From: an uncultured bacterium
GTDB lineage: Bacteria > Patescibacteriota > Minisyncoccia > UBA6257 > 2-01-FULL-56-20
DNA: 64,000 nt
Assembly (NCBI GenBank): GCA_963707865.1
Contig: OY970175.1
Location: forward strand, 80,748-144,747
Direction of reading: 5' to 3'
The notes beneath the pieces were generated by a model. The model was not told the DNA's origin. It ran no database searches and was given only the letters and a program-made list of their open reading frames with translations. Below, piece by piece: positions 2,632 to 47,883 of the stretch (position 1 is its first letter; each line of letters begins with the position of its first letter). A program made the translations under genes and the position numbers.

Positions 2632-4937
2632 AAATAAGGCAAAAACGGCGTAGGATTTTAGAAAGATTTAATCCTATGGACGTAGCGATTGCAAAGGAGA
2701 AAATCGCAGCCCTCGTTGCGAAATATAATGCCGAGGCTGTTTCTGATAAGTTGGGACGTTACAGCGAAGAAGATGTTAAAAACGCTTTTATTAAGCCGCT
2801 GTTCGAAGCTCTTGGCTGGGATATTGAGAATCGCGATGAGACCTCTGCGGAGGAACATATTAAATTCGCCGGAAGGGCTGATTACGGTTTTTACCTGAAT
2901 GGTCGCCCGAAATTTTACCTTGAAACAAAGAAGGTATCAGCTGACCTAAATAATCCTGAGTTTGCTAATCAAGCTGTTCGCTATGCGTGGAACAAAGGTA
3001 TTACCTGGGCAGTACTTACCAATTTTAAGGGTTTGAAAATTTTTAATGCTCAAGATATCAAGCGATCACTTGCAGATAAACTTTTTAAGGATATTAAACA
3101 CACGGAATACCTTTCACGCCTAGATGAACTCCTACTCCTTTCTCGGGAAGCTTTCGCGGAAAACCTATTGGATAAAGAAGCTGCAAAAGTAGGGAAAATT
3201 TATCTTCGGGTTCCCGTAGGCGACAAGCTTTATAAAGACCTAGATGAATGCCGAGCCAAGCTTACAAATGCTTTGCTCAAGTGCAACCCCGAACTGAAAA
3301 AGAATCATGATCTTCTTGATGAGGGCGTGCAGAAATTACTGGATCGTCTTATCTTTCTCCGCGTCGCCGAAGATCGCAATGTCGAGCCAAACATTTTAAG
3401 AATTCTTCTACGCGAAGCACAATCAACCCGCAAAGGGGAAATGTCGCTATATCAAGCGATGACAGAGAAATTTCGGGAACTTGACAAGGTTTACGACTCC
3501 AATCTTTTTTCGGAACATCCTTTTGAAAATTGGGATGAATATGATGGCGCTACGGAAAAAGTGATTGAAAAACTGTACGGAGAAAAGGGATACTATGAAT
3601 ATGATTTCAAGTTGATGCCAGCCGATGTTTTGGGCACCGTCTATGAGCATTATCTTGGCTACCGGCTTTCAAAAACAAAACCAGACAAGCGGAAATTGAT
3701 TCAAAGCAGCGGTGTAGAGCTCAGTAAGGATTCCAAGAAACGCAAGGAGCAGGGGATTTATTATACACCAACATTCGTTGTGGATTATATCGTTCGCCAC
3801 GCTTTGCAGCCAGTGCTTGATAAATGTAAAACATATCAAGACTTGATAAATGTAAAAGTTTTGGATCCTGCGTGTGGCTCTGGCTCTTTTCTTTTGAAAG
3901 CGCTTGAAGTCTTTAATGAAAAATATAAGGAGCTTGGGCAGAAAGGGGATGAGGATACTAAGCGCATTATTTTGAGCTGTAATTTATATGGCGTTGATCT
4001 TGACGAAAAAGCCGTAGAGATCGCAAGATTGAATTTACTCATAAATTCGCTTGATAGAAAAGAAGTTTTGCCTACGCCGAATATTAAATGTGGTAATTCG
4101 CTTATTTCCGGATCTGCTGAGGATCTTAAAAAATATTTTGGGGAAAATTGGAGGGAAAAGAAGCCGTTTAACTGGGAAGAAGAATTTTCTGAGATATTTA
4201 AAAACGGGGGATTTGATGTGGTGATTGGGAATCCGCCCTACGTGGTTTTAGAGGCAAGCGATGACCATTTATCATTTTTGAGAGATAACTATAAATCTTC
4301 ACAAGGGGGCAAAGTTAATCTATATAAGGCGTTTATCGAGCGAGGCATTGCCTTACTCAAAAGTGGCGGTCATCTCGGCTTCATCTGCCCTAGCAATTAT
4401 TTGTCGAGTAGCGATAGTAAGACCCTGAGAGAATTATTACTGAAGGAGACTAATTTAATTGAGATAATTGAATATTCTGAAAAAGATAAAGTTTTTGACG
4501 GTGTCACACAGGCTCTAACTACGATTATTTTCGAGAAGAGTAAAATGCATGCAAGTCAACTAGTCCATCTTGTAACAAAGAAGTATGGAGATGCAATTGT
4601 CGCCCAAGACAATCTACTTGAAGGTGAGGGCTATGAGTTTGTTGTTGAAAATAAAGCAATTAAAAAAATTGGCGATGCGAAATTAAGAATTTCCGATTTA
4701 TGCGAAGGATATCAGGGGGAGATCAATGTTAGTACAAAAAAAGAATTTTTTATACACGGGGCAAGAAGCAATTATCTGCCCCTACTTCGAGGTAATCAAA
4801 TTTTTAGATACCAACTCATTCCCTCTGATGAGTTTTGCCCAATTAGTATAGATAAAAGGGGGCACTGGAAAAGCCCACGCATTGTTTTACAAGAAGTTTC
4901 TAATCAGCAACAAGATAGAAGAATCAAGGGCGTTTGT
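2628..4937 (+). pseudogene. Type IIG/IIL single-chain restriction-modification enzyme, N-terminal 770 aa (Mrr-like PD-(D/E)XK nuclease + gamma-class N6-adenine methyltransferase), truncated by IS insertion
   Basis: N-terminal nuclease motif GRADYGFY...FYLETKK (D...ExK). Methyltransferase motifs GIYYTPTFVVDYIV, VLDPACGSGSFL (FxGxG, motif I) and VIGNPPYV (NPPY, motif IV). The reading frame runs into IS sequence after ...RIKG at about 4930 and terminates at 4967. The gene is AT-rich. Confidence 0.7.
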
Positions 4938-5959
4938 TTCATGTCCGCACATTTGTCCCCTCGATAGCTTGAAGATATTCAACCGGCGTCTTTCCCGCAA
5001 GGGCAAGATGAGGACAGACCGTGTTGTACCAGGCGCAGTACGCGGCCTGTTTTTGTTTCGCTTCGGCCACCGTGCGGAATGATATCTTGTTCCAGAACCG
5101 TTCGCGGTCATTGCGATGCGACCGCTCCACCTTGCCGTTCTGCGCAGGATGCCCCGGGGCGATGAGATAGTGCGTCATTTTTTGTTTTTCACAAGTAACA
5201 TCAAAAGGATGCAACCGCGGCTTCAGGGGATCTGCTGACTTCGGATATCCCACGTACCGGTTCGTGAAGATTGATCCGTTATCGGTCTTCACCGCACGGA
5301 TGCGGAAGGGTGCCGTAGCAATGACTTTCTCGAGAAACAAGATCGCGGTCCGCGTGGATTGTTCTTGGGTCACCCAGAGATGCCGCCACCGCGTGCAGCA
5401 ATCAATCGCGGTGAACTGGTAGAGCCATTGCCCCTTGAATCTCCGCACATAAACGACATCAATCTCGATGATCTCTCCGGGAAACGTGGCGGTCGGTTTC
5501 CACTTTGCTTTGGGCACCAACCGTTTTTTGGTTCTTGAGAGCCCCTCACGTTTCAGGACTTTGGCAATACCCCGCACGGAGAGCTTCAGGCCCTCGCGGG
5601 CGAGGAGATACATGAGGACATCAGGACCCAGATCCGTTGCTGTTCGCAACGATCTGATCCGATTCACGATGGTCTGTGAGAATTGTTTCGGATGCGTGTG
5701 CGGCCTGCGCGAGTGCGACACGAGCGCATCGATCCCGCCCCTGCGATATGCCGCCACCCACCGCTTGAGCGTGCGATATGAAAACGGCGCGTGGGCAGCA
5801 ATGTCCTTGATACTCATCTCTTTCTCAAGATGCGGGGTGATCCACCGCATCCGTTCCTCTGCTGCGTCTTTTGCGAGTGTTTGTGGCATATTCCCCAGCT
5901 TACACTTCAAGGGGCCATATGTATGTGCAGAGTACCCGTTCCTATTGACAGTGGGTTTC
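4938..5959 (-). mobile_element. IS481-family insertion sequence (~1.02 kb) inserted into the RM gene
   Basis: Carries a single DDE (rve-type) transposase ORF. Its GC is much higher than the surrounding AT-rich RM gene. The flanking RM fragments rejoin in frame if a putative 5-bp target-site duplication TTTGT (4933-4937 and 5960-5964) is collapsed. Imperfect terminal repeats share GCACAT...CCCCT. The boundaries are approximate, +/-10 bp. Confidence 0.6.
4939..5889 (-). CDS. IS481-family DDE transposase (integrase core domain)
   Basis: N-terminal HTH region, then integrase-core motifs (...TAIDCCTRW..., ...KTDNGSIFT..., ...APGHPAQNGKVERSHR...). The likely start is the ATG at 5889 (MPQTLAKD...), inside the longer track ORF 4939..6003. 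Confidence 0.75.
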   Translation of the reverse strand: MPQTLAKDAAEERMRWITPHLEKEMSIKDIAAHAPFSYRTLKRWVAAYRRGGIDALVSHSRRPHTHPKQFSQTIVNRIRSLRTATDLGPDVLMYLLAREGLKLSVRGIAKVLKREGLSRTKKRLVPKAKWKPTATFPGEIIEIDVVYVRRFKGQWLYQFTAIDCCTRWRHLWVTQEQSTRTAILFLEKVIATAPFRIRAVKTDNGSIFTNRYVGYPKSADPLKPRLHPFDVTCEKQKMTHYLIAPGHPAQNGKVERSHRNDRERFWNKISFRTVAEAKQKQAAYCAWYNTVCPHLALAGKTPVEYLQAIEGTNVRT

Positions 5960-6357
5960 TTTGTGGCCACACCACGAATTATGTTTTTCCCAAAGACAAA
6001 CACGCAGATATTTATTATTTGTTGGGGCTATTAAACAGTCGGGTGGTTGATTATTACTTTAAATATTTTAATAACACAAACCACGTTCCCATAGGAGAAC
6101 TGAAAGATATTCCCGTTCCGAAGACAACCAAAAAGGAACAAGATGTTATAGGGAATTTAGCAAAAATAATGGTTGAGCTACATCAAAAATGCGATAGCGT
6201 CAAAGAGAATTCAAATGGATGGAAAATTCTAAAAATTGAGATCGAAAAAACTGACAGAAAAATTGACGAAGAAATTTATAAATTATATAGCCTCAATCAA
6301 GAAGAAATGAAAACAATAGAGGGAGACTCAGAATCTTTAATCAAGCGGTCCAAATAG
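5960..6357 (+). pseudogene. C-terminal fragment (~130 aa) of the disrupted type IIG RM enzyme
   Basis: HTTNYVFPKDKHADIYYLLGLLNSRVVDYYF...IGELKDIPVP...EEIYKLYSLNQEEMKTIE is the characteristic C-terminal region of type IIG / gamma-MTase enzymes. It is AT-rich like the N-terminal fragment. Confidence 0.55.
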
Positions 6358-6540
6358 TTTCGGCAGGCTATGTAATAGATATGGACGGTCGCGGGCCGGT
6401 AAGACCGGCCCGCTCCTGCGGAACCTCTCGGTTCCGCACTGTCCCGCCGCAAAATCGTGCGGCGGGACCTTCCTACACGGGGCACCTCCCGGTGCCCCGA
6501 CCCCCTCCCCGAATCCATGTCTCGGTAGTATCTTATGTGT

Positions 6541-7691: not shown

Positions 7692-8045
7692 GTGGGTTGG
7701 ATGGAAAAGGATTTTGGGAAGTGGCATATTCTTAAAACAGATCTCCAGCGCAGAGAAGGTGGGCCATTTTTCGCCAAGCGAGAGATCTGGATTTGCTCAG
7801 TCGGTTTAAACCTTGGCCACGAAGAAGACGGGAAAGGTGATCGATTTTTGCGCCCGGTTGTCATCTTTAAGAAATTTACCTCAGATCTCTTTTGGGGCAT
7901 ACCTCTCACAAGTAGCGACAAGAGTGGACCATCCCATTATCAATTTAATTTCTTGGTTCCACAAATCGAAACCCCTTCTCGCGAAGAAGGGGTTTCTCGG
8001 GGGGCCGAAGCCCATTGTGATTCCAGTATAGCAGGAGCAGGATAA
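7692..8045 (+). CDS. PemK/MazF-family toxin-like protein (mRNA interferase fold), no cognate antitoxin seen
   Basis: REIWICSVGLNLGHEEDGKGDRFLRPVVIF...GIPLTS matches PemK/Kid (GEIWLVSLDPTAGHEQQGTRPVLIV...VPVTS). The C-terminal 40 aa are divergent. No small upstream ORF is present. Confidence 0.5.
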   Translation: MGWMEKDFGKWHILKTDLQRREGGPFFAKREIWICSVGLNLGHEEDGKGDRFLRPVVIFKKFTSDLFWGIPLTSSDKSGPSHYQFNFLVPQIETPSREEGVSRGAEAHCDSSIAGAG

Positions 8046-33708: not shown

Positions 33709-36114
33709 ATGCTCGGCTTTTATATATTCATCTCCGTCGTCCTTTGCGCCATCGCGGGCACGGCGATCTATTTTATTTTTCGCTCGCTCGCGCGGCGAAG
33801 GATAGCACTGTCCTTAAGCACCTCAGTTTTTCTTATAAAAATTCCGAAGCCGGCTGCGGGATCGGAGGTTTCTCCGGGAAGCTCGGAGAACAAGGACTTC
33901 AAGGCAGAACTCGCGCACTTTGAGCAGCTTTTGGGAAGCTTGGCGGCGATCAAGAAACCGTTCACGTTTGAGGTCGCCGTGCCGCACGTGGGTGAAGAGA
34001 TCCACTTTTACCTCGCAGTGCCGAAACTGTCTTCGGAAGTGGCTGCGAAACAGGTCTTGGGACTGTGGAGCGGCGCTTCGGTCACGCAGGTGACGGATGA
34101 TTTCAACATTTTTAACCCGCACGGCGAGGCGGTGGCGGCATATGTGAAGCAGAAAGAGCATTACGGCCTTCCCATACGGACCTATAACGAGCTTGGCATT
34201 GATTCATTTGAACCGATCGTGGGCGCGCTCACGAAGATAAATGAGATTGGCGAGGGGGCGGCGGTGCAGGTCATCATGCAACCCGCGCCCGCGGGGACGA
34301 AGAAGGAAGTGCAGCACGCGATTGAGCGTTTGAAGAAGGGCGAGCCGTTCAAGAAAGTATTTCGGAGCGACTTTGTGCGTTCGTTCTCCGAGGCGGGGGA
34401 GGTTTTGAATCCGAAAACCAAGGAGAAAAAGATGGAGGAGAAGCAGGAGCGCGTGGTAGACGAAGAGGCGGCGAAGGCACTCCAGGCGAAGATCATGAAG
34501 CCGCTTTTCTTTGTAAACGTGCGGCTCGTCGCCTCGGCGGGGTCACCATTTCAGGCGAATGACATTTTGGACGGGCTTGCCGCCGGATTCAGCCAGTTCG
34601 GGAGCCCTACGCGGAATGATCTCCGGGTGATAAAACCGCGGAATCCAGACAAACTCATCCGCAAATTCATCTTCCGCGAGTTTGACGCGTCGCAATCCAT
34701 GACGCTTTCGAGTGAAGAGATCGCAAGCTTTTATCATTTGCCGATTTCGTCCACCGAGACGCCGCATGTGAAGTGGCTTAAATCAAAGGAAGCGCCGCCT
34801 CCGGAAAACCTCTCCAAGCAAGGAGCGCTCCTCGGTTACAGCAATTTCCGCGGGGAGTCCAGGCCTATTTACATCACGGACGAGGACCGGCGCCGCCACA
34901 TCTACGTGATTGGTCAGACCGGCACCGGAAAGACCACGGAAATTTCAAGCATGTTAATTGATGACATCCAGGCAGGCAAAGGCGTCGCAATCATTGACCC
35001 GCACGGCGAGTTCGCGGAAAAAGCGCTCGCCAAGATTCCGAAGGAACGCGTTGAGGACGTGATCTATTTTGACCCGGGCGACCTCGCGCGGCCCATGGGC
35101 ATCAACATGCTTGATTACAATTTCAGCCGCCCCGAAGAAAAAACGTTCATCGTGAACGAGCTTCTCGGCATCTTTGACAAATTGTACGACCTGAAGACCA
35201 CGGGCGGTCCGATGTTTGAACTCTATATGCGCAACGCCCTCCTTCTTCTCATGGAAGACATGCCGAACGAGGAGGCGACCCTGATTGAAGTGCCCCGCAT
35301 TTTCACGGACACCGCGTACCGCGTGCGGAAACTTGAACGCATCCATAATCCCACCGTCATTGATTTCTGGGAAAAGGAAGCGATAAAAACGAGCGGCGAG
35401 CAGTCGCTCGCCAACATGGCGGTGTACGTGAGCTCAAAGTTCACCGCCTTCATCTCTAACGACTACATGCGGCCGATCATCGGCCAGCCGAAATCGGCGT
35501 TCAATTTCCGCGATGTGATGGATAACGGGAAGATTTTGCTCATCAACCTTTCAAAAGGAAAAATAGGAGACATCAATTCCAACCTTCTCGGCATGATCTT
35601 CATTGGGAAGATTCTGATGGCGGCCCTCTCGCGCGTGGAGATCGCCGACGAATCAAAGCGCCGCGACTTTTATCTCTATATTGATGAGTTTCAGAACTTC
35701 GCCACCGACGCGGTCGCGACTATCCTCTCCGAAGCGCGCAAATATCATTTAAGTTTGACGATGGCGCACCAGTTCATCGCGCAGCTCAAGGAGAATATCC
35801 GCGACGCCGTCTTCGGGAATGTGGGAACCCAACTTGTGATGCGCGTGGGGCCGCAGGACGCGGAGTTCCTTGTGAAGCAATTTGAGCCGGTATTCAACAA
35901 GAACGACCTTATTAGTATTGATAATCTGAACGCGTTTGTGCGGCTTCTTGTGAATGGTCAGACCTCGCGCCCGTTCAATATGAAGATGAACACGTCGTCG
36001 TGGGCGCCGGGCAATGCCGAACTTGCCGTGAAGCTCAAGGAATACTCGCGTGTAAAATTCGGGCAGGACAGGCAGGTGGTAGAGGACGAGATCTATCGGC
36101 GCCTGCGGGAGTAA
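33709..36114 (+). CDS. TraD/VirD4/TrwB-like coupling-protein ATPase (FtsK/HerA superfamily) with N-terminal TM helix and long unassigned middle region
   Basis: Walker A YVIGQTGTGKTT, Walker B FYLYIDEFQNF, and LTMAHQFIAQL. There is an N-terminal TM helix. About 330 aa before the ATPase have no recognisable motif. Confidence 0.6.
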   Translation: MLGFYIFISVVLCAIAGTAIYFIFRSLARRRIALSLSTSVFLIKIPKPAAGSEVSPGSSENKDFKAELAHFEQLLGSLAAIKKPFTFEVAVPHVGEEIHFYLAVPKLSSEVAAKQVLGLWSGASVTQVTDDFNIFNPHGEAVAAYVKQKEHYGLPIRTYNELGIDSFEPIVGALTKINEIGEGAAVQVIMQPAPAGTKKEVQHAIERLKKGEPFKKVFRSDFVRSFSEAGEVLNPKTKEKKMEEKQERVVDEEAAKALQAKIMKPLFFVNVRLVASAGSPFQANDILDGLAAGFSQFGSPTRNDLRVIKPRNPDKLIRKFIFREFDASQSMTLSSEEIASFYHLPISSTETPHVKWLKSKEAPPPENLSKQGALLGYSNFRGESRPIYITDEDRRRHIYVIGQTGTGKTTEISSMLIDDIQAGKGVAIIDPHGEFAEKALAKIPKERVEDVIYFDPGDLARPMGINMLDYNFSRPEEKTFIVNELLGIFDKLYDLKTTGGPMFELYMRNALLLLMEDMPNEEATLIEVPRIFTDTAYRVRKLERIHNPTVIDFWEKEAIKTSGEQSLANMAVYVSSKFTAFISNDYMRPIIGQPKSAFNFRDVMDNGKILLINLSKGKIGDINSNLLGMIFIGKILMAALSRVEIADESKRRDFYLYIDEFQNFATDAVATILSEARKYHLSLTMAHQFIAQLKENIRDAVFGNVGTQLVMRVGPQDAEFLVKQFEPVFNKNDLISIDNLNAFVRLLVNGQTSRPFNMKMNTSSWAPGNAELAVKLKEYSRVKFGQDRQVVEDEIYRRLRE

Positions 36115-39422: not shown

Positions 39423-39544
39423 TTCTACGTCCTCCCATAGGGTCTCATTTAATAAGGTTCCAATTGCAATAGTAAGCCAACGTTTCGTGTTGTCAAAGCG
39501 GGGGAATGGCGTTTTTGCGCGCGGCGTGGTATAGTAGTGTTTGG

Positions 39545-39977
39545 CAATCCAGACGGTCGCTCGGCTGCGTCGCGCAAGCGGCGCTAGCTGGGAGGAAAGT
39601 CCGGACACCCTCCAGCCGTAGTTTCTTTGAAACTACAGCTGGATAAAACGGTAGCGGCTAACAGCCGCACGGCGAAAGCCGAGAGGTGCGATCAGTGACG
39701 CCCCGTTCCGAAAGGTTCGGGGGAGCCCGATCCCAAGCTAGATGGCTCAACTCCGCGATAGGGACAAAAAAGTGGAGGTGAAACGGCAAAACCCTTACTG
39801 GGTGCAAGGCCGCGTCCAGCCGTAATTGCGAGAGCAATTACAGCTGGGAGTGCCGCACGAGCCCGCGAGCAATCAAGGGCCCAGAGAAATGACCGTCCCT
39901 CCGTCCAGCCGTAATTTAAAAAATTACGGCTGGGCTGGGCGACAGAATCCGGCTTACGGATTGCCAGCAACATAAAG
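39545..39977 (+). ncRNA. rnpB: RNase P RNA (bacterial type A-like)
   Basis: P4 strands GGGAGGAAAGTCCGGAC and ACAGAATCCGGCTTA. P1 pairing is TTGGCAATCC with GGATTGCCAG. P3 is CGTCGC-GCAA-GCGGCG. A GCAA-looped hairpin plus T-run terminator sits at 39973-40000. Confidence 0.8.
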
Positions 39978-40002
39978 GCCCCGCGCAAGCGGGGCTTTTA
40001 TG
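39973..40002 (+). terminator. Intrinsic terminator after rnpB
   Basis: Hairpin GGCCCCGC-GCAA-GCGGGGC followed by TTTTAT. Confidence 0.6.
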
Positions 40003-40024
40003 TTGGCGCACGTTTCTCGCCTTT

Positions 40025-40420
40025 CTATTCTACTTTTTCTCCAAAGGCCTCATCTTCAACGTCCGCTTCGGCATCTTGTTTGGTTTTGTGTATTCTGCCG
40101 TCTATATGGTTTGCGGGAGCGTAGATGGTGAAAACCTTGAGCGATTCGCTGCCAGTGTTTATGAAATTGTGCTTGATTCCCGGCGTTACGACAACCACAT
40201 CTCCGGCTTGATATGGCTGCTCTTTCCCTTCAAGCACCGCTTTTCCTTCGCCGCGCAGGAGAAAGAGCGTTTGCTCAACATGAGAATGAGTTTCCTCTCC
40301 GATGTCCTCGTGGGGCTTGATGTCCATCACAACAAGCTGGCTTTTAGCGCCTGTGAAAAGCACTTTTCGGAAATACGTGTTTTTCTCTGTCTCTTCAATG
40401 TAATTCCCCGAATAAGGCAT
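40025..40420 (-). CDS. Cupin domain protein
   Basis: G(X)5HXH...E...G and PXG...H...N cupin motifs (IGEETHSHVEQTLFLLRGEG, VVVTPGIKHNF). Confidence 0.7.
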   Translation of the reverse strand: MPYSGNYIEETEKNTYFRKVLFTGAKSQLVVMDIKPHEDIGEETHSHVEQTLFLLRGEGKAVLEGKEQPYQAGDVVVVTPGIKHNFINTGSESLKVFTIYAPANHIDGRIHKTKQDAEADVEDEAFGEKVE

Positions 40421-46076: not shown

Positions 46077-46598
46077 GTGGGAAAGTTTTCAATGCGCGAT
46101 AGCATGCGCGACACAGTCCTTTGTTTACCGCTTACGGAAGATTCCATACTACTTGGCATGAAGAAGCGTGGCTTCGGCGCAGGACGCTGGAACGGCATGG
46201 GCGGGAAGCCGAAGCGGGAGGAATCTGTTGAAATGGCGGCGGTGCGGGAATTGGAAGAGGAGATCGGCCTAAAGGCTTCTGTGGGCGATCTCAAAAAATG
46301 CGCCGTTTTGGATTTCTTTTTTGAACATAAATCTGACTGGGACCAGCGCGTGCATGTCTTTTTTGTAAAACGGTGGGAGGGTGAGCCGACCGAATCCGAA
46401 GAAATGCGGCCGCAGTGGTTTTCGTTCAAGGAGATTCCGTTTGATATTATGTGGCCAGACGACCGGCACTGGCTGCCCGAAGTATTGCAGGGAAAATTAA
46501 TTACGGGAAAATTTCATTTTGCCGACGATGGAAACATGATCGCTAAGTACGAGATTACGGAAATGAAAAAAGGAGAACTGCCGCAAGAACGTTCGTAA
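46077..46598 (+). CDS. NUDIX hydrolase (MutT-like)
   Basis: Nudix box GGKPKREESVEMAAVRELEEEIGL. Confidence 0.8.
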   Translation: MGKFSMRDSMRDTVLCLPLTEDSILLGMKKRGFGAGRWNGMGGKPKREESVEMAAVRELEEEIGLKASVGDLKKCAVLDFFFEHKSDWDQRVHVFFVKRWEGEPTESEEMRPQWFSFKEIPFDIMWPDDRHWLPEVLQGKLITGKFHFADDGNMIAKYEITEMKKGELPQERS

Positions 46599-46715
46599 GG
46601 GCATCTCGGAGCCACGGCGGCTTGACCCAGCACCACTTTTGCTTTGCAAAAGTGGTGCTGGGTGCCGTGGCGAGAGCGAGGCGCATTTCCCCGCTGGAGG
46701 AAATGATGCCGTCCC

Positions 46716-47462
46716 TTACGAGCGTTCTTGCGGCGGGAGCCCTTTCGCGAACGCAGCGACGATGGGGTCCATATCGCCGTCCAGGATCTTTAGAATGTTG
46801 TGCCACTTCTTCCCGAGGCGGTGGTCAGTGATGCGATCGTCGGGGAAATTATAGGTGCGGATCTTTTCCGAGCGGTCGGCGGTGCCGACCTGCTCCCGGC
46901 GGAGGTCGGTTACGGAGCCTACCGCTTTGTGCTGTTCCATTTCGTATAGTTTCGCGCGGAGAACATCCATCGCTTTCTCGCGGTTCGCGTACTGTGAGCG
47001 CTCCTCGCGCGAAGAAACGACAATACCGGTTGGCTTGTGAAGAATCCGCACGGCAGTCTCCACCTTGTTTACGTTCTGTCCTCCCGGGCCACCCGCGCGC
47101 GAAAAGGTCACTTCAAGGTCGCTTGGCGCAATGTTCACCTCGCGCGCTTCCACAATTGGTAACACGGCCACCGAAGCGGTGGAGGTGTGCACGCGGCCGG
47201 ATTTTTCCGTTGCCGGGATCCGTTGCACGCGGTGTACGCCTGATTCGTTCCGAAGCGCCTCGTAGCACCCCGCGCCTCGCACTTCGGCCACGAGCGACTT
47301 GAACCCCTGGAGCGAAGTTGCGTTCGAGTCAAGCACGGAAAATGCCCAGCCCCGTTTTACGACATAGCGTTGGTACATGCGCGCCAGGTCACCCGCGAAA
47401 ATCGCGGCCTCATCGCCGCCCGCGCCAGCCCGTATTTCCAGGATGATCTTTCCCGTCGTCAT
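46716..47462 (-). CDS. prfA: Peptide chain release factor 1 lacking N-terminal domain 1 (249 aa)
   Basis: RIPATE (PxT codon-recognition motif of RF1), GGQ ([29 protein letters not shown]). It begins at the equivalent of E. coli RF1 residue ~110 ([13 protein letters not shown]). The in-frame upstream stretch is only 37 aa and low-complexity. Confidence 0.75.
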
Positions 47463-47493
47463 TGTTTTGTATGATATAATATATAGTACATCA

Positions 47494-47883
47494 ATGACAG
47501 GGCAACCGTTCGTGCTTATTGTTGACGACGAAGCGGACTTTCGCGAGATTTTCGGAACCAAACTTTCTGCCATGGGTTATCGTGTGGCTACCGCGGAGGA
47601 CGGACAGGCGGCGCTCCTTAAAATGGCGAAAGAAAAACCGGATCTCGTCCTTATGGACGTCAAGATGCCGACAATGGATGGGGCGACCGCGGTGCTCAAA
47701 ATGAAAGAAGACCCGGCACTGAAAGACATCAAAGTGGCGTTTCTTACGAGCTTGGGCGATCCGCGCCTTGATGTGCAGGATATCAGCCGAAAGTTTTCCG
47801 AAGAATTCGGCGCACAGGGATACCTCAAAAAGACCGACGACCTTGACGTGCTTGCGGAAAAGATAAAGGCGCTGCTTCCATGA
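47494..47883 (+). CDS. Response regulator, receiver domain only (CheY-like)
   Basis: VLIVDDE, the phospho-acceptor D in LMDVKMP, and conserved T/K positions. A TATAAT sits 14 nt upstream of the ATG. Confidence 0.8.

Follow-up and report, generated by a model that had tools for sequence, protein, structure and literature searches.

Three near-identical palindromic hairpins of about 30 nt occupy peripheral helices of the RNase P RNA gene (rnpB) in the window, the whole 64-kb stretch of bacterial DNA analyzed here, and the same hairpin, hereafter the cassette, recurs in other genomes in 23S rRNA, group I introns and intergenic DNA. The three sites are hypervariable parts of an otherwise very conserved RNA, and all of them were overwritten in the window lineage after its split from a close sister. 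An earlier note had pointed out the three hairpins, which are real and lie where it placed them, with none expected in shuffled sequence. Its suggestion that a repeat had colonized rnpB helices is borne out by the copies outside rnpB and by the ordinary, unrelated hairpins that close relatives carry at the three sites.

The RNase P RNA gene and its three cassettes

The segment 39541–39971 (+) is matched by the Rfam family RNaseP_bact_a (RF00010) in cmscan with 101.1 bits against a gathering score of 100 (E = 1e-29), in a full-length alignment covering model positions 1–367; it is the three insertions that make the score exceed the cutoff so barely. Syntenic rnpB genes in relatives and the names of neighboring proteins also identify it as rnpB of the class A type. 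Homologs of the adjoining RNase H-like protein are named Minisyncoccia or Candidatus Paceibacterota, and the host lineage is Patescibacteria (Paceibacteria/Minisyncoccia). In the competition within clan CL00002, class A was kept as the best match, and the gene was not assigned to class B (RF00011), whose marks are P5.1, P10.1 and P15.1 with no P16/P17. The RNA contains a P15 loop with a P16/P17 arm (39806–39856), P16/17 aligning to the class A model, together with a GNRA-capped P18 (39861–39881) and the universally conserved P4 strands, GGAAAGUCCGG ... ACAGAAnCCGGCUUA, enclosed by P1/P2. As the earlier note had them, P1 (39542–39550 with 39958–39966, +), a GCAA-capped P3 (39560–39592, +), the 5′ and 3′ strands of P4 (GAGGAAAGUCCGGAC at 39592–39606 and ACAGAAUCCGGCUUA at 39942–39956, both +) and a 3′ terminator are all present. 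The terminator, a GC-rich hairpin with a T run (39978–40003; hairpin 39978–39995), lies between rnpB (+) and a cupin gene (−) and is probably bidirectional. The whole RNase P RNA folds far better than its shuffles (z = −8.5).

The first cassette copy, CCAGCCGUAGUUUC-UUU-GAAACUACAGCUGG (39612–39642, +), stands between P5 and P7, at the place of P5.1; the second, CCAGCCGUAAUUGC-GAGA-GCAAUUACAGCUGG (39816–39847, +), takes the P16/P17 place inside the P15 loop; and the third, CCAGCCGUAAUUU-AAA-AAAUUACGGCUGG (39905–39933, +), forms the tip of P19, borne on an outer stem at 39895–39943. These places come from the Rfam covariance-model alignment that the earlier note had called for, and the last of them shows its assignment of copy 3 to P18 to be wrong. 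In the cmscan alignment, copy 3 is an insertion between the 3′ strands of P2 and P4, the place of P19, and the true P18 (39861–39881, +), which is nearly invariant among relatives, has a GCAA loop and no cassette. The P6 pseudoknot (J5/7 with the P17 loop) looks absent, because copy 2 is an uninterrupted GAGA-loop hairpin and J5/7 is taken up by copy 1.

All three hairpins have in common the stem base CCAGCCGUA/UACRGCUGG, which is absent from the rest of the 64 kb. The pattern CCAGCCGTA-N(6–26)-TACRGCTGG matches the window three times, at 39612–39642, 39816–39847 and 39905–39933, against an expectation of 0 in 100 shuffles, and the 9-mer CCAGCCGTA occurs four times, always within rnpB and in these arms, against 0.25 expected; relaxed pattern searches elsewhere in the window gave nothing convincing. 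Folded alone, the copies form stems of 13–14 bp (−19.7, −22.7 and −29.2 kcal/mol; z from −6 to −8). They share the basal 9–12 bp only and differ in distal stem and loop, and copies 2 and 3 have 15 nt in common, of which 3 are flanking bases. Stem position 6 is a C.A opposition in copies 1 and 2 and a C-G pair in copy 3, which is fully Watson-Crick. The analogy with heptanucleotide repeats of cyanobacteria, drawn in the earlier note, fails, as Tandem Repeats Finder detected no tandem repeat in 39450–40050.

A fourth cassette of another variant, CCAGCACCACUUUUGC-UUU-GCAAAAGUGGUGCUGG, is found at 46611–46672 (cassette 46627–46661), where it is borne by an outer stem of 8 bp and lies between a NUDIX gene and a release-factor gene that converge on it; the variants CGUA and ACCAC are thereby both present in the 64 kb. 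The variant at 46627–46661 also occurs in rnpB helices of L061, L121 and L128. The relative L179 has a release-factor ortholog that is 85% identical, and the NUDIX neighbor of the 46627 site is not orthologous there.

Recent gain and the wider cassette family

The gene order PGK, 314-aa ORF, RNase H-like gene, (HTH gene) and rnpB is conserved in relatives, and six full-length syntenic rnpBs (Paceibacteria/Minisyncoccia) were aligned with that of the window, a comparison of sister lineages that the earlier note had also proposed. Outside the three hairpin regions, identity amounts to 279/286 (97.6%) for the sister L168 and to 84–92% for the five other syntenic relatives. The cassette is absent from all six (0/6) and likewise, at the P5.1 place, from three further relatives with partial rnpB. 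The hairpins of relatives at the three sites are short, mutually different and capped by GCAA, GAAA or UUCG, and those at the P5.1 place are unrelated and 16–36 nt in length. L168 has CGUUUCGCC-GCAA-GGCGAAAGU at the P5.1 place, CUCCGGC-GAAA-GUCGGAG at P16/17 and CUUCCGC-GCAA-GCGGAAG at P19. Given that the cassette is missing from all six and that L168 is so similar in the core, the triple gain is recent and postdates the split from L168. Along the core that separates the three hairpins, divergence from L168 is not raised (5 differences in about 250 nt), which excludes the import of all three in a single foreign tract.

Two further observations touch on how the cassettes came in. The 3′ strand of P3 differs from that of L168 by three clustered transitions (CCGGCCGGG to CUAGCUGGG), which keep the P3 pairing and create AGCUGGGAG, a 9-mer identical to the 3′ end of copy 2 and its flank; these transitions may be a short conversion tract or footprint. 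In addition, the ancestral-type hairpins at P16/17 and P19 start with UCCGGC and UCCGC, close to UCCAGCC, and this likeness of the ancestral stems to the foot of the cassette is a possible microhomology.

Outside rnpB, where the earlier note had suggested looking, the hairpin was found by scanning one genome per species with the pattern CCAGCCGTARTT-N(2–24)-AAYTACRGCTGG, which gave 46 loci against about 0.7 expected by chance on our own estimate. Nearly all of them are in Patescibacteria MAGs labeled Saccharibacteria, Parcubacteria, Kaiser-, Yanofsky-, Nomura-, Lipton- or Gracilibacteria, labels that may be imprecise, and the few matches from Chryseobacterium, Pseudomonas and others look like ordinary terminators. 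Among the representative genomes matched, there are about 1–10 exact-pattern copies per genome, and the basal 12–13 nt are identical across classes as distant as Saccharimonadia, Paceibacteria and Gracilibacteria-labeled MAGs. The hairpin resides in 23S rRNA variable regions (L013, L017 and L030, placed by Rfam and sequence context), in the 23S leader (L018 and L033) and in helix P8 of group I introns within rRNA genes (L010 by cmscan alignment, and L003, L043 and L046 by common flanking sequence). A 341-nt fragment of the L017 23S had no Rfam match, and the insertion site was set by comparison with three other 23S 5′ regions. In rnpB, it is found at P16/17 in L020, P3 in L042 and the P5.1 place in L041, and also in L011. 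Further Patescibacteria copies lie at unannotated intergenic sites, and none of the matching loci has the hairpin in a credible ORF. At the P5.1 place of L041, the cassette, its C.A opposition and both junctions are the same as in the window, although the core is only about 80% alike.

The flanks of 60 copies revealed neither a target-site duplication nor a conserved target motif, and they are often complementary, lengthening the helix. In L036, an ORF is bracketed by inverted copies, reminiscent of a REPtron, yet it encodes DUF559 and no Y1 transposase, and this reading was rejected. Viral contigs scanned for two cassette variants contained no match and give no evidence for a phage vector. 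For the 46627 hairpin and the L036 arrays, Rfam offered sub-threshold chance matches only.

A metagenome scan anchored on the P3/P4 junction retrieved 92 distinct rnpBs, a set biased to P3 ending in GCUGG. Direct repeats of at least 11 nt are present in 26/92 of them, compared with 2.5 in shuffles, and a strictly duplicated hairpin in 10/92, compared with 0. About 20 of these rnpBs possess 2–4 hairpins that start with CCAGC and have 5–12 further base pairs in common inside the same RNA. The variable box of the cassette is alike among the copies in one RNA, while the homologous position differs between RNAs; these lineage-specific shared hairpins constitute a pattern of concerted evolution. For example, L011 carries four copies, with CCAGCUCUAAUUUU at P3, the P5.1 place and P19 and CCAGCUGUAAUUUU at P16/17, L155 has CCAGCCCCAGUUGG three times, P3 matches P19 in L071 and L055 and P16/17 in L082 and L083, and L109, of Saccharibacteria-like source, contains three copies of about 100 nt at P3, the P12 region and P19. 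Because L055 is from Verrucomicrobiota, within-gene hairpin duplication is not confined to Patescibacteria, and its occurrence there may be related to the cassette phenomenon. Homogenization is incomplete, since L084, L165 and L079 each carry two variants in one rnpB. The junction GCUGG|GAGUGCC is common to the P16/17 copies of L020, L079, L083 and L011. Cassette variant and rnpB core similarity are unrelated (0.671 vs 0.678, p = 0.78), in a test whose cores, 62–83% identical, may be saturated. The architecture recurs in assemblies made independently from several sources, and L011 is identical to L135.

Comparison of 82 distinct rnpB cassettes starting with CCAGC, a foot that was itself the search criterion, gives the family consensus CCAGC - N C Y W N - UUU(U)... 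/ ...AAA - N5 - GCUGG, and the sites used in Patescibacteria rnpB are P3, the P5.1 place, the P12 region, P16/17 and P19. In the 5′ arm, positions 7–9 are mostly C, Y and W and positions 11–14 are U-rich, so that the consensus is bipartite, with base pairs 1–5 (CCAGC/GCUGG) and the U/A-rich base pairs 11–14 separated by roughly one turn of the helix; sequence and length (5–80 nt) vary freely in the distal part. Watson-Crick pairs make up 94% of cassette pairs, and C.A is about as common as G.U (18 vs 27 in RNA sense). Compensatory double changes occur at all nine variable pairs, with 97% of cells paired (74% in shuffles) and a covariation score of 0.571 (0.144 in shuffles; 0/500 shuffles as high), figures that are biased upward by the selection for hairpins. 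Stem position 6 is a hot spot, with 56 Watson-Crick, 13 G.U-type and 12 C.A pairs in RNA sense, and is non-Watson-Crick in 26/82 cassettes. The C-A mismatch of copies 1 and 2, from which the earlier note took a hint of common origin, is thus present as described, but it says little on origin: because position 6 is a hot spot throughout the family, the mismatch is a family trait and not evidence of mutual copying. Among exact-variant copies, a position-6 mismatch is found in 11/16 inside known structured RNAs vs 3/38 elsewhere (p about 1e-5, or 7e-4 with homologous copies pooled), which hints at an RNA-level feature.

Explanations for the spread of the cassette

The recent triple gain, the occurrence outside rnpB, the patchy spread, the concerted pattern with its whole-hairpin duplicates, the possible P3 footprint and the partial likeness of ancestral stems fit best with a passenger that is copied and pasted at the DNA level, an account that we hold with confidence slightly short of even. 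The palindromic cassette has overwritten three hypervariable surface helices of rnpB, namely the P5.1 place, P16/17 and the tip of P19. Copies would spread by short-patch conversion or template switching between hairpins that share basal bases, or alternatively by a hairpin-specific mobility function not yet seen, and the same DNA-level route would homogenize copies inside one gene or genome. Once transcribed, a copy would be a helical extension of 13–14 bp on the enzyme surface, at positions that tolerate any hairpin, leaving RNase P function unaffected. The cassette is not required in rnpB, because sister lineages do without it, and its distribution is patchy. Near-perfect palindromes with symmetric C.A and U.G defects would likewise fit a DNA-palindrome signature. 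What the data show directly is which gene this is, where its helices lie, how recent the gain is, how the cassette is distributed, the covariation of its pairs and the concerted pattern; that copying takes place at the DNA level, and that the cassette is neutral and has no RNA-level role of its own, one may infer from these.

A number of observations weigh against this copy-paste account. Deep identity of the basal stem at low copy number is more in keeping with a binding site under selection than with a selfish repeat that drifts, except where lateral transfer is frequent; neither a transposase nor a target-site duplication nor a conserved target sequence came to light; of the four copies in 64 kb, three sit in one 431-nt gene, which a random inserter would not produce; the three recent window copies differ distally and are therefore not simple mutual copies; the position-6 mismatch is enriched inside structured RNAs; and L041 has the same cassette and junctions with a core only about 80% alike. 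These points tell against a reading that is selfish or neutral and nothing else, and they leave room for two rivals, a binding factor and lateral exchange.

The main rival is a functional RNA tag, in which the cassette would be bound by a putative trans-acting factor, such as a dsRNA-binding or chaperone-tethering protein, shared by the large structured RNAs of Patescibacteria, and the copies would be kept alike by the need to fit the same partner; the nearest analog is archaeal L7Ae on the K-turns of several RNAs. We regard it as unlikely, though deserving of serious weight. It would account for a basal stem that is low in copy number and yet deeply conserved between classes and between host RNAs, for the bipartite consensus with parts about one helical turn apart and a freely varying distal part, for hosts that are all large folded RNAs, for the fixed wobble at base pair 6 enriched in RNA-gene copies, and for the recurrence of one cassette at one rnpB junction in lineages far apart. 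However, the sister with 97.6% core identity and eight other relatives have no cassette in rnpB, so that RNase P does not need it, and variants are mixed within one genome or RNA (CGUA and ACCAC in the window; L084, L165 and L079). Moreover, C.A mismatches are about as frequent as U.G in RNA sense, the stems are plain Watson-Crick helices with neither bulge nor loop motif, and no candidate protein has been identified.

Lateral allele exchange is a doubtful explanation, less probable than a tag. Foreign rnpB DNA, presumably taken up from outside, would have recombined through the ultra-conserved core segments that flank the variable helices and serve as homology arms, so that the cassette would move between lineages within rnpB, rRNA or intron genes. 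L041, with its cassette, C.A and junctions the same at about 80% core likeness while nearer relatives lack the cassette, speaks for such exchange, as do the P16/17 junction GCUGG|GAGUGCC shared by L020, L079, L083 and L011, the uncoupling of variant distribution from core similarity, and the existence of donors with cassettes at the same three places, such as L011. Yet the 5 differences in about 250 nt exclude a single tract, three separate short patches would be needed, and exchange between homologous positions leaves the non-homologous sites (P3, P12, P19, 23S, intron P8 and intergenic) unexplained.

It is still less probable, and on our assessment very improbable, that the stems are processing signals recognized by a double-strand-specific RNase, as with the intervening sequences of 23S rRNA that RNase III excises, which would leave the mature RNase P RNA and rRNA fragmented, or, in a variant of this idea, that they carry anti-determinants shielding long helices from cleavage. 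Copies that lengthen helix tips in variable regions of 23S and in the leader of pre-23S (L013, L017, L018 and L033), the conserved stem with a dispensable distal part and the two conserved boxes at a distance of about one helical turn are in keeping with recognition of this kind, but many copies have stems of only 13–14 bp. We know of no bacterial precedent for an RNase P RNA in four or five pieces, and the 23S cassette sites, set against the E. coli sequence, are presumably not classical IVS helices.

Of the two origins offered in the earlier note, colonization by a repeat and concerted evolution after intragenic duplication, the former and the concerted evolution of the latter are supported, whereas a purely intragenic origin is unlikely because the three copies share the basal 9–12 bp only and differ distally. 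An account in which a single rnpB hairpin was triplicated and the copies then underwent gene conversion could draw on the 15 nt common to copies 2 and 3, including 3 flanking bases, and on the within-gene duplicated hairpins of many other rnpBs, including the copies of about 100 nt in L109. It is largely refuted by the identical basal stem at 46 loci in other genomes and other RNA types and by the lack of a source copy in the rnpB of the closest relatives, and the distal stem and loop also differ among the three copies; its probability is, if anything, a shade below that of a processing signal. Chance resemblance or an assembly artifact is of negligible probability, as shuffling predicts 0 matches, the same architecture appears in independent assemblies, and the repeated arms (12–15 nt) are below assembler k-mers.

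Known palindromic repeats and the meaning of hairpin reuse

Several known systems resemble the cassette in part. Vioque reportedly described, in 1997, heptanucleotide STRRs in helix P12 of the RNase P RNA of heterocystous cyanobacteria, and the cassette is like these repeats, which occur genome-wide, in lying inside a peripheral rnpB helix that tolerates length change without loss of function. STRRs are tandem 7-nt units in a single helix, whereas the cassette is a palindromic hairpin of about 30 nt in three helices that is shared with rRNA and introns. Rickettsia palindromic elements and the double-hairpin elements or GC clusters of fungal and chytrid mitochondrial rRNA genes are invaders of 100–150 bp or GC clusters, high in copy number and also found in ORFs. 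They resemble the cassette in using intergenic DNA and variable regions of structural RNA genes and in being patchy among relatives, but the cassette is about 30 nt at its base, low-copy and never in credible ORFs, and it replaces helix tips.

REP and BIME elements, which are mobilized by RAYT, are short palindromic repeats (PMC4550694). They share with the cassette a small, imperfectly palindromic form, a foot that is conserved and the lack of a target-site duplication, and they form species-specific sequence families. RAYTs are IS200/IS605-like Y1 transposases, and REPs have a GTAG foot and copies that are often clustered. In contrast, the foot of the 82 cassettes is CCAGC (the search criterion), with GUAG internal in one variant only, and clustering is absent, the 64 kb holding no CGUA copy outside rnpB and one intergenic copy of another variant. 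Nor was a RAYT seen, the only bracketed ORF (L036) being DUF559, and to our knowledge REPs do not occur inside rnpB or rRNA helices. A MITE would leave target-site duplications, unlike the cassette in the flanks of 60 copies.

Eukaryotic rRNA expansion segments, as Hancock and Dover are said to have reported in 1988, coevolve through DNA turnover (slippage and conversion) combined with compensatory pairing. There, as here, a variable helix is more similar to the other variable helices of its own RNA than to its homologs in other species; unlike those cryptically simple, GC-rich segments of multicopy rDNA, the cassette is a discrete hairpin whose foot is conserved, and it occurs in bacterial genes that are single-copy and in different RNA species. 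The archaeal protein L7Ae binds K-turns, which consist of a bulge and tandem G.A pairs, in RNase P RNA (P12 and P16), rRNA and sRNAs, and the recurrence of one module in several RNase P RNA helices and in other structured RNAs is similar. The cassette, however, has no three-nucleotide bulge with sheared G.A pairs, its predicted stem being continuous apart from one C.A opposition, and, unlike the K-turn with its known protein L7Ae, it has no known partner and is absent from sister lineages.

Class B RNase P RNA has a P19 that stacks on P2/P3 and, where P6 has been lost, a P5.1 (PMC12974513). The window RNA has extra hairpins at the same two topological positions, but it scores as class A and keeps P16/17, and P5.1 and P19 of class B are unrelated in sequence. 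The RNase P RNAs of CPR bacteria have diverged, with helices extended or missing (Lui et al. 2021, PMC8172020), and the passages on "RNase P RNA" in that paper do not describe a shared hairpin. Literature searches with the sequence itself, on CPR RNase P RNA and on palindromes in rnpB found no description of the cassette. Palindromic repeats tolerated in structural RNA genes are thus of a known kind, and what appears to be new is the pattern of hairpin reuse across Patescibacteria RNAs.

In practical terms, the insertions leave CPR rnpB genes with scores barely at the Rfam threshold (101 vs 100 bits) and can mislead helix assignment. The usual assumption is that each peripheral helix of RNase P RNA, rRNA or a group I intron goes its own way in evolution, held only weakly by the need to stay paired; in contrast, one hairpin sequence is reused here across catalytic and ribosomal RNAs and in deeply separated Patescibacteria. 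The reuse of the hairpin has two possible consequences, a previously unrecognized DNA-level process that builds and homogenizes bacterial expansion segments or, alternatively, a novel RNA-binding factor that large structured RNAs have in common, in a minimal-genome lineage that is missing ribosomal proteins. One tentative proposal, somewhat unlikely as it stands, is that a dedicated Patescibacteria factor reads the cassette as an RNA "address tag", or else that the cassette is a new kind of mobile hairpin that specifically overwrites variable-helix tips in structured-RNA genes; if true, it would provide a general active mechanism by which expansion segments are gained and exchanged in the ribozymes and rRNAs of reduced bacteria.

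The P5.1 place in RNase P RNA

In locus L041, a MAG labelled Saccharibacteria, the RNase P RNA gene (rnpB) carries at the P5.1 place (7799-7828) the same cassette hairpin as the window, with the same C.A mismatch and the same junctions. This identity is found despite an rnpB core only about 80% like that of the window, while nearer relatives are without the cassette, a combination that suggests either recurrent gain or lateral exchange, or else mislabelling. In the rnpB of the relative L182, an AT-rich repetitive insertion of AAUUUCCAA-like units (3470-3544) also occupies the P5.1 place, and thus shows that the site accepts widely differing expansions.

Stem position 6 and the intergenic cassette of the window

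Across all cassettes, position 6 of the stem (39617/39637 and 39821/39842 in the window) is a hot spot of wobble pairs and mismatches, at which C.A and U.G are equally frequent in the RNA sense. The mismatch is commoner in cassettes lying within structured RNAs (11/16 versus 3/38). A 35-nt cassette of another variant (CCAGCACCACUUUUGC...), borne on an 8-bp outer stem, lies at 46611-46672 (outer stem included), where the NUDIX gene (46077-46598) and the release-factor gene (46716-47573) converge. Folding is equally good for its two strands, with energies of about -53 kcal/mol for one and -51 kcal/mol for the other. Helices of rnpB in three other loci, L061, L121 and L128, are capped by this variant too. 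The window also encodes, upstream of PGK, an 801-aa TraD/VirD4-like coupling-protein homologue (33709-36114; domains DUF87, TrwB_AAD_bind and TraG-D_C), whose place is kept in the relatives L177, L178 and L179.

Cassettes and duplications at other RNA loci

At three further loci (L005 186-225, L031 4565-4600 and L040 1318-1357), the cassette sits at the tip of a conserved stem of greater length. Pairing between the flanks of this stem (GCGACUAUGAUUUUCGUUGU ... AUGAUGAUUUUUAUGGUCGC) involves G.U pairs on one of the strands, suggesting an unannotated structured RNA. In loci L002 (6439-6472) and L012 (1827-1860), it forms a P3-like hairpin adjoining GGAGGAAAGCUCGG, a variant of the P4 sequence GGAAAGUCCGG; the putative rnpBs of both score below the Rfam gathering threshold. 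Upstream of the rnpB of locus L092, an exact 69-nt direct repeat containing the P4 3' strand (…ACAGAAUCCGGCUUA) lies some 470 nt upstream of the second copy, which suggests a partial duplication of rnpB. In a cmscan alignment (L010 1465-1851), the consensus that Rfam gives for P8 of group I introns (uccuagauu...aaucuagga) is similar to CCCUAGAUUA, the inner stem of the cassettes of the variants found in the rnpB loci L082 and L083, a likeness that may be due to chance.

Repeat arrays around a DUF559 ORF

On contig L036, a DUF559 ORF (5702-6118, minus strand) is flanked on either side, in inverted orientation, by arrays of approximately 50-nt units (5370-5790 and 6120-6390), each unit consisting of AUCUCCCUUACUAAAGGGAG, a small variable hairpin and GGGAGGGUUGU. 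The cassette is one among these variable hairpins. Such arrays, for which no Rfam match was found, are also present in L008, L009, L016 and L027, and could be a repeat or mobile unit in their own right, belonging to Parcubacteria and Saccharibacteria.
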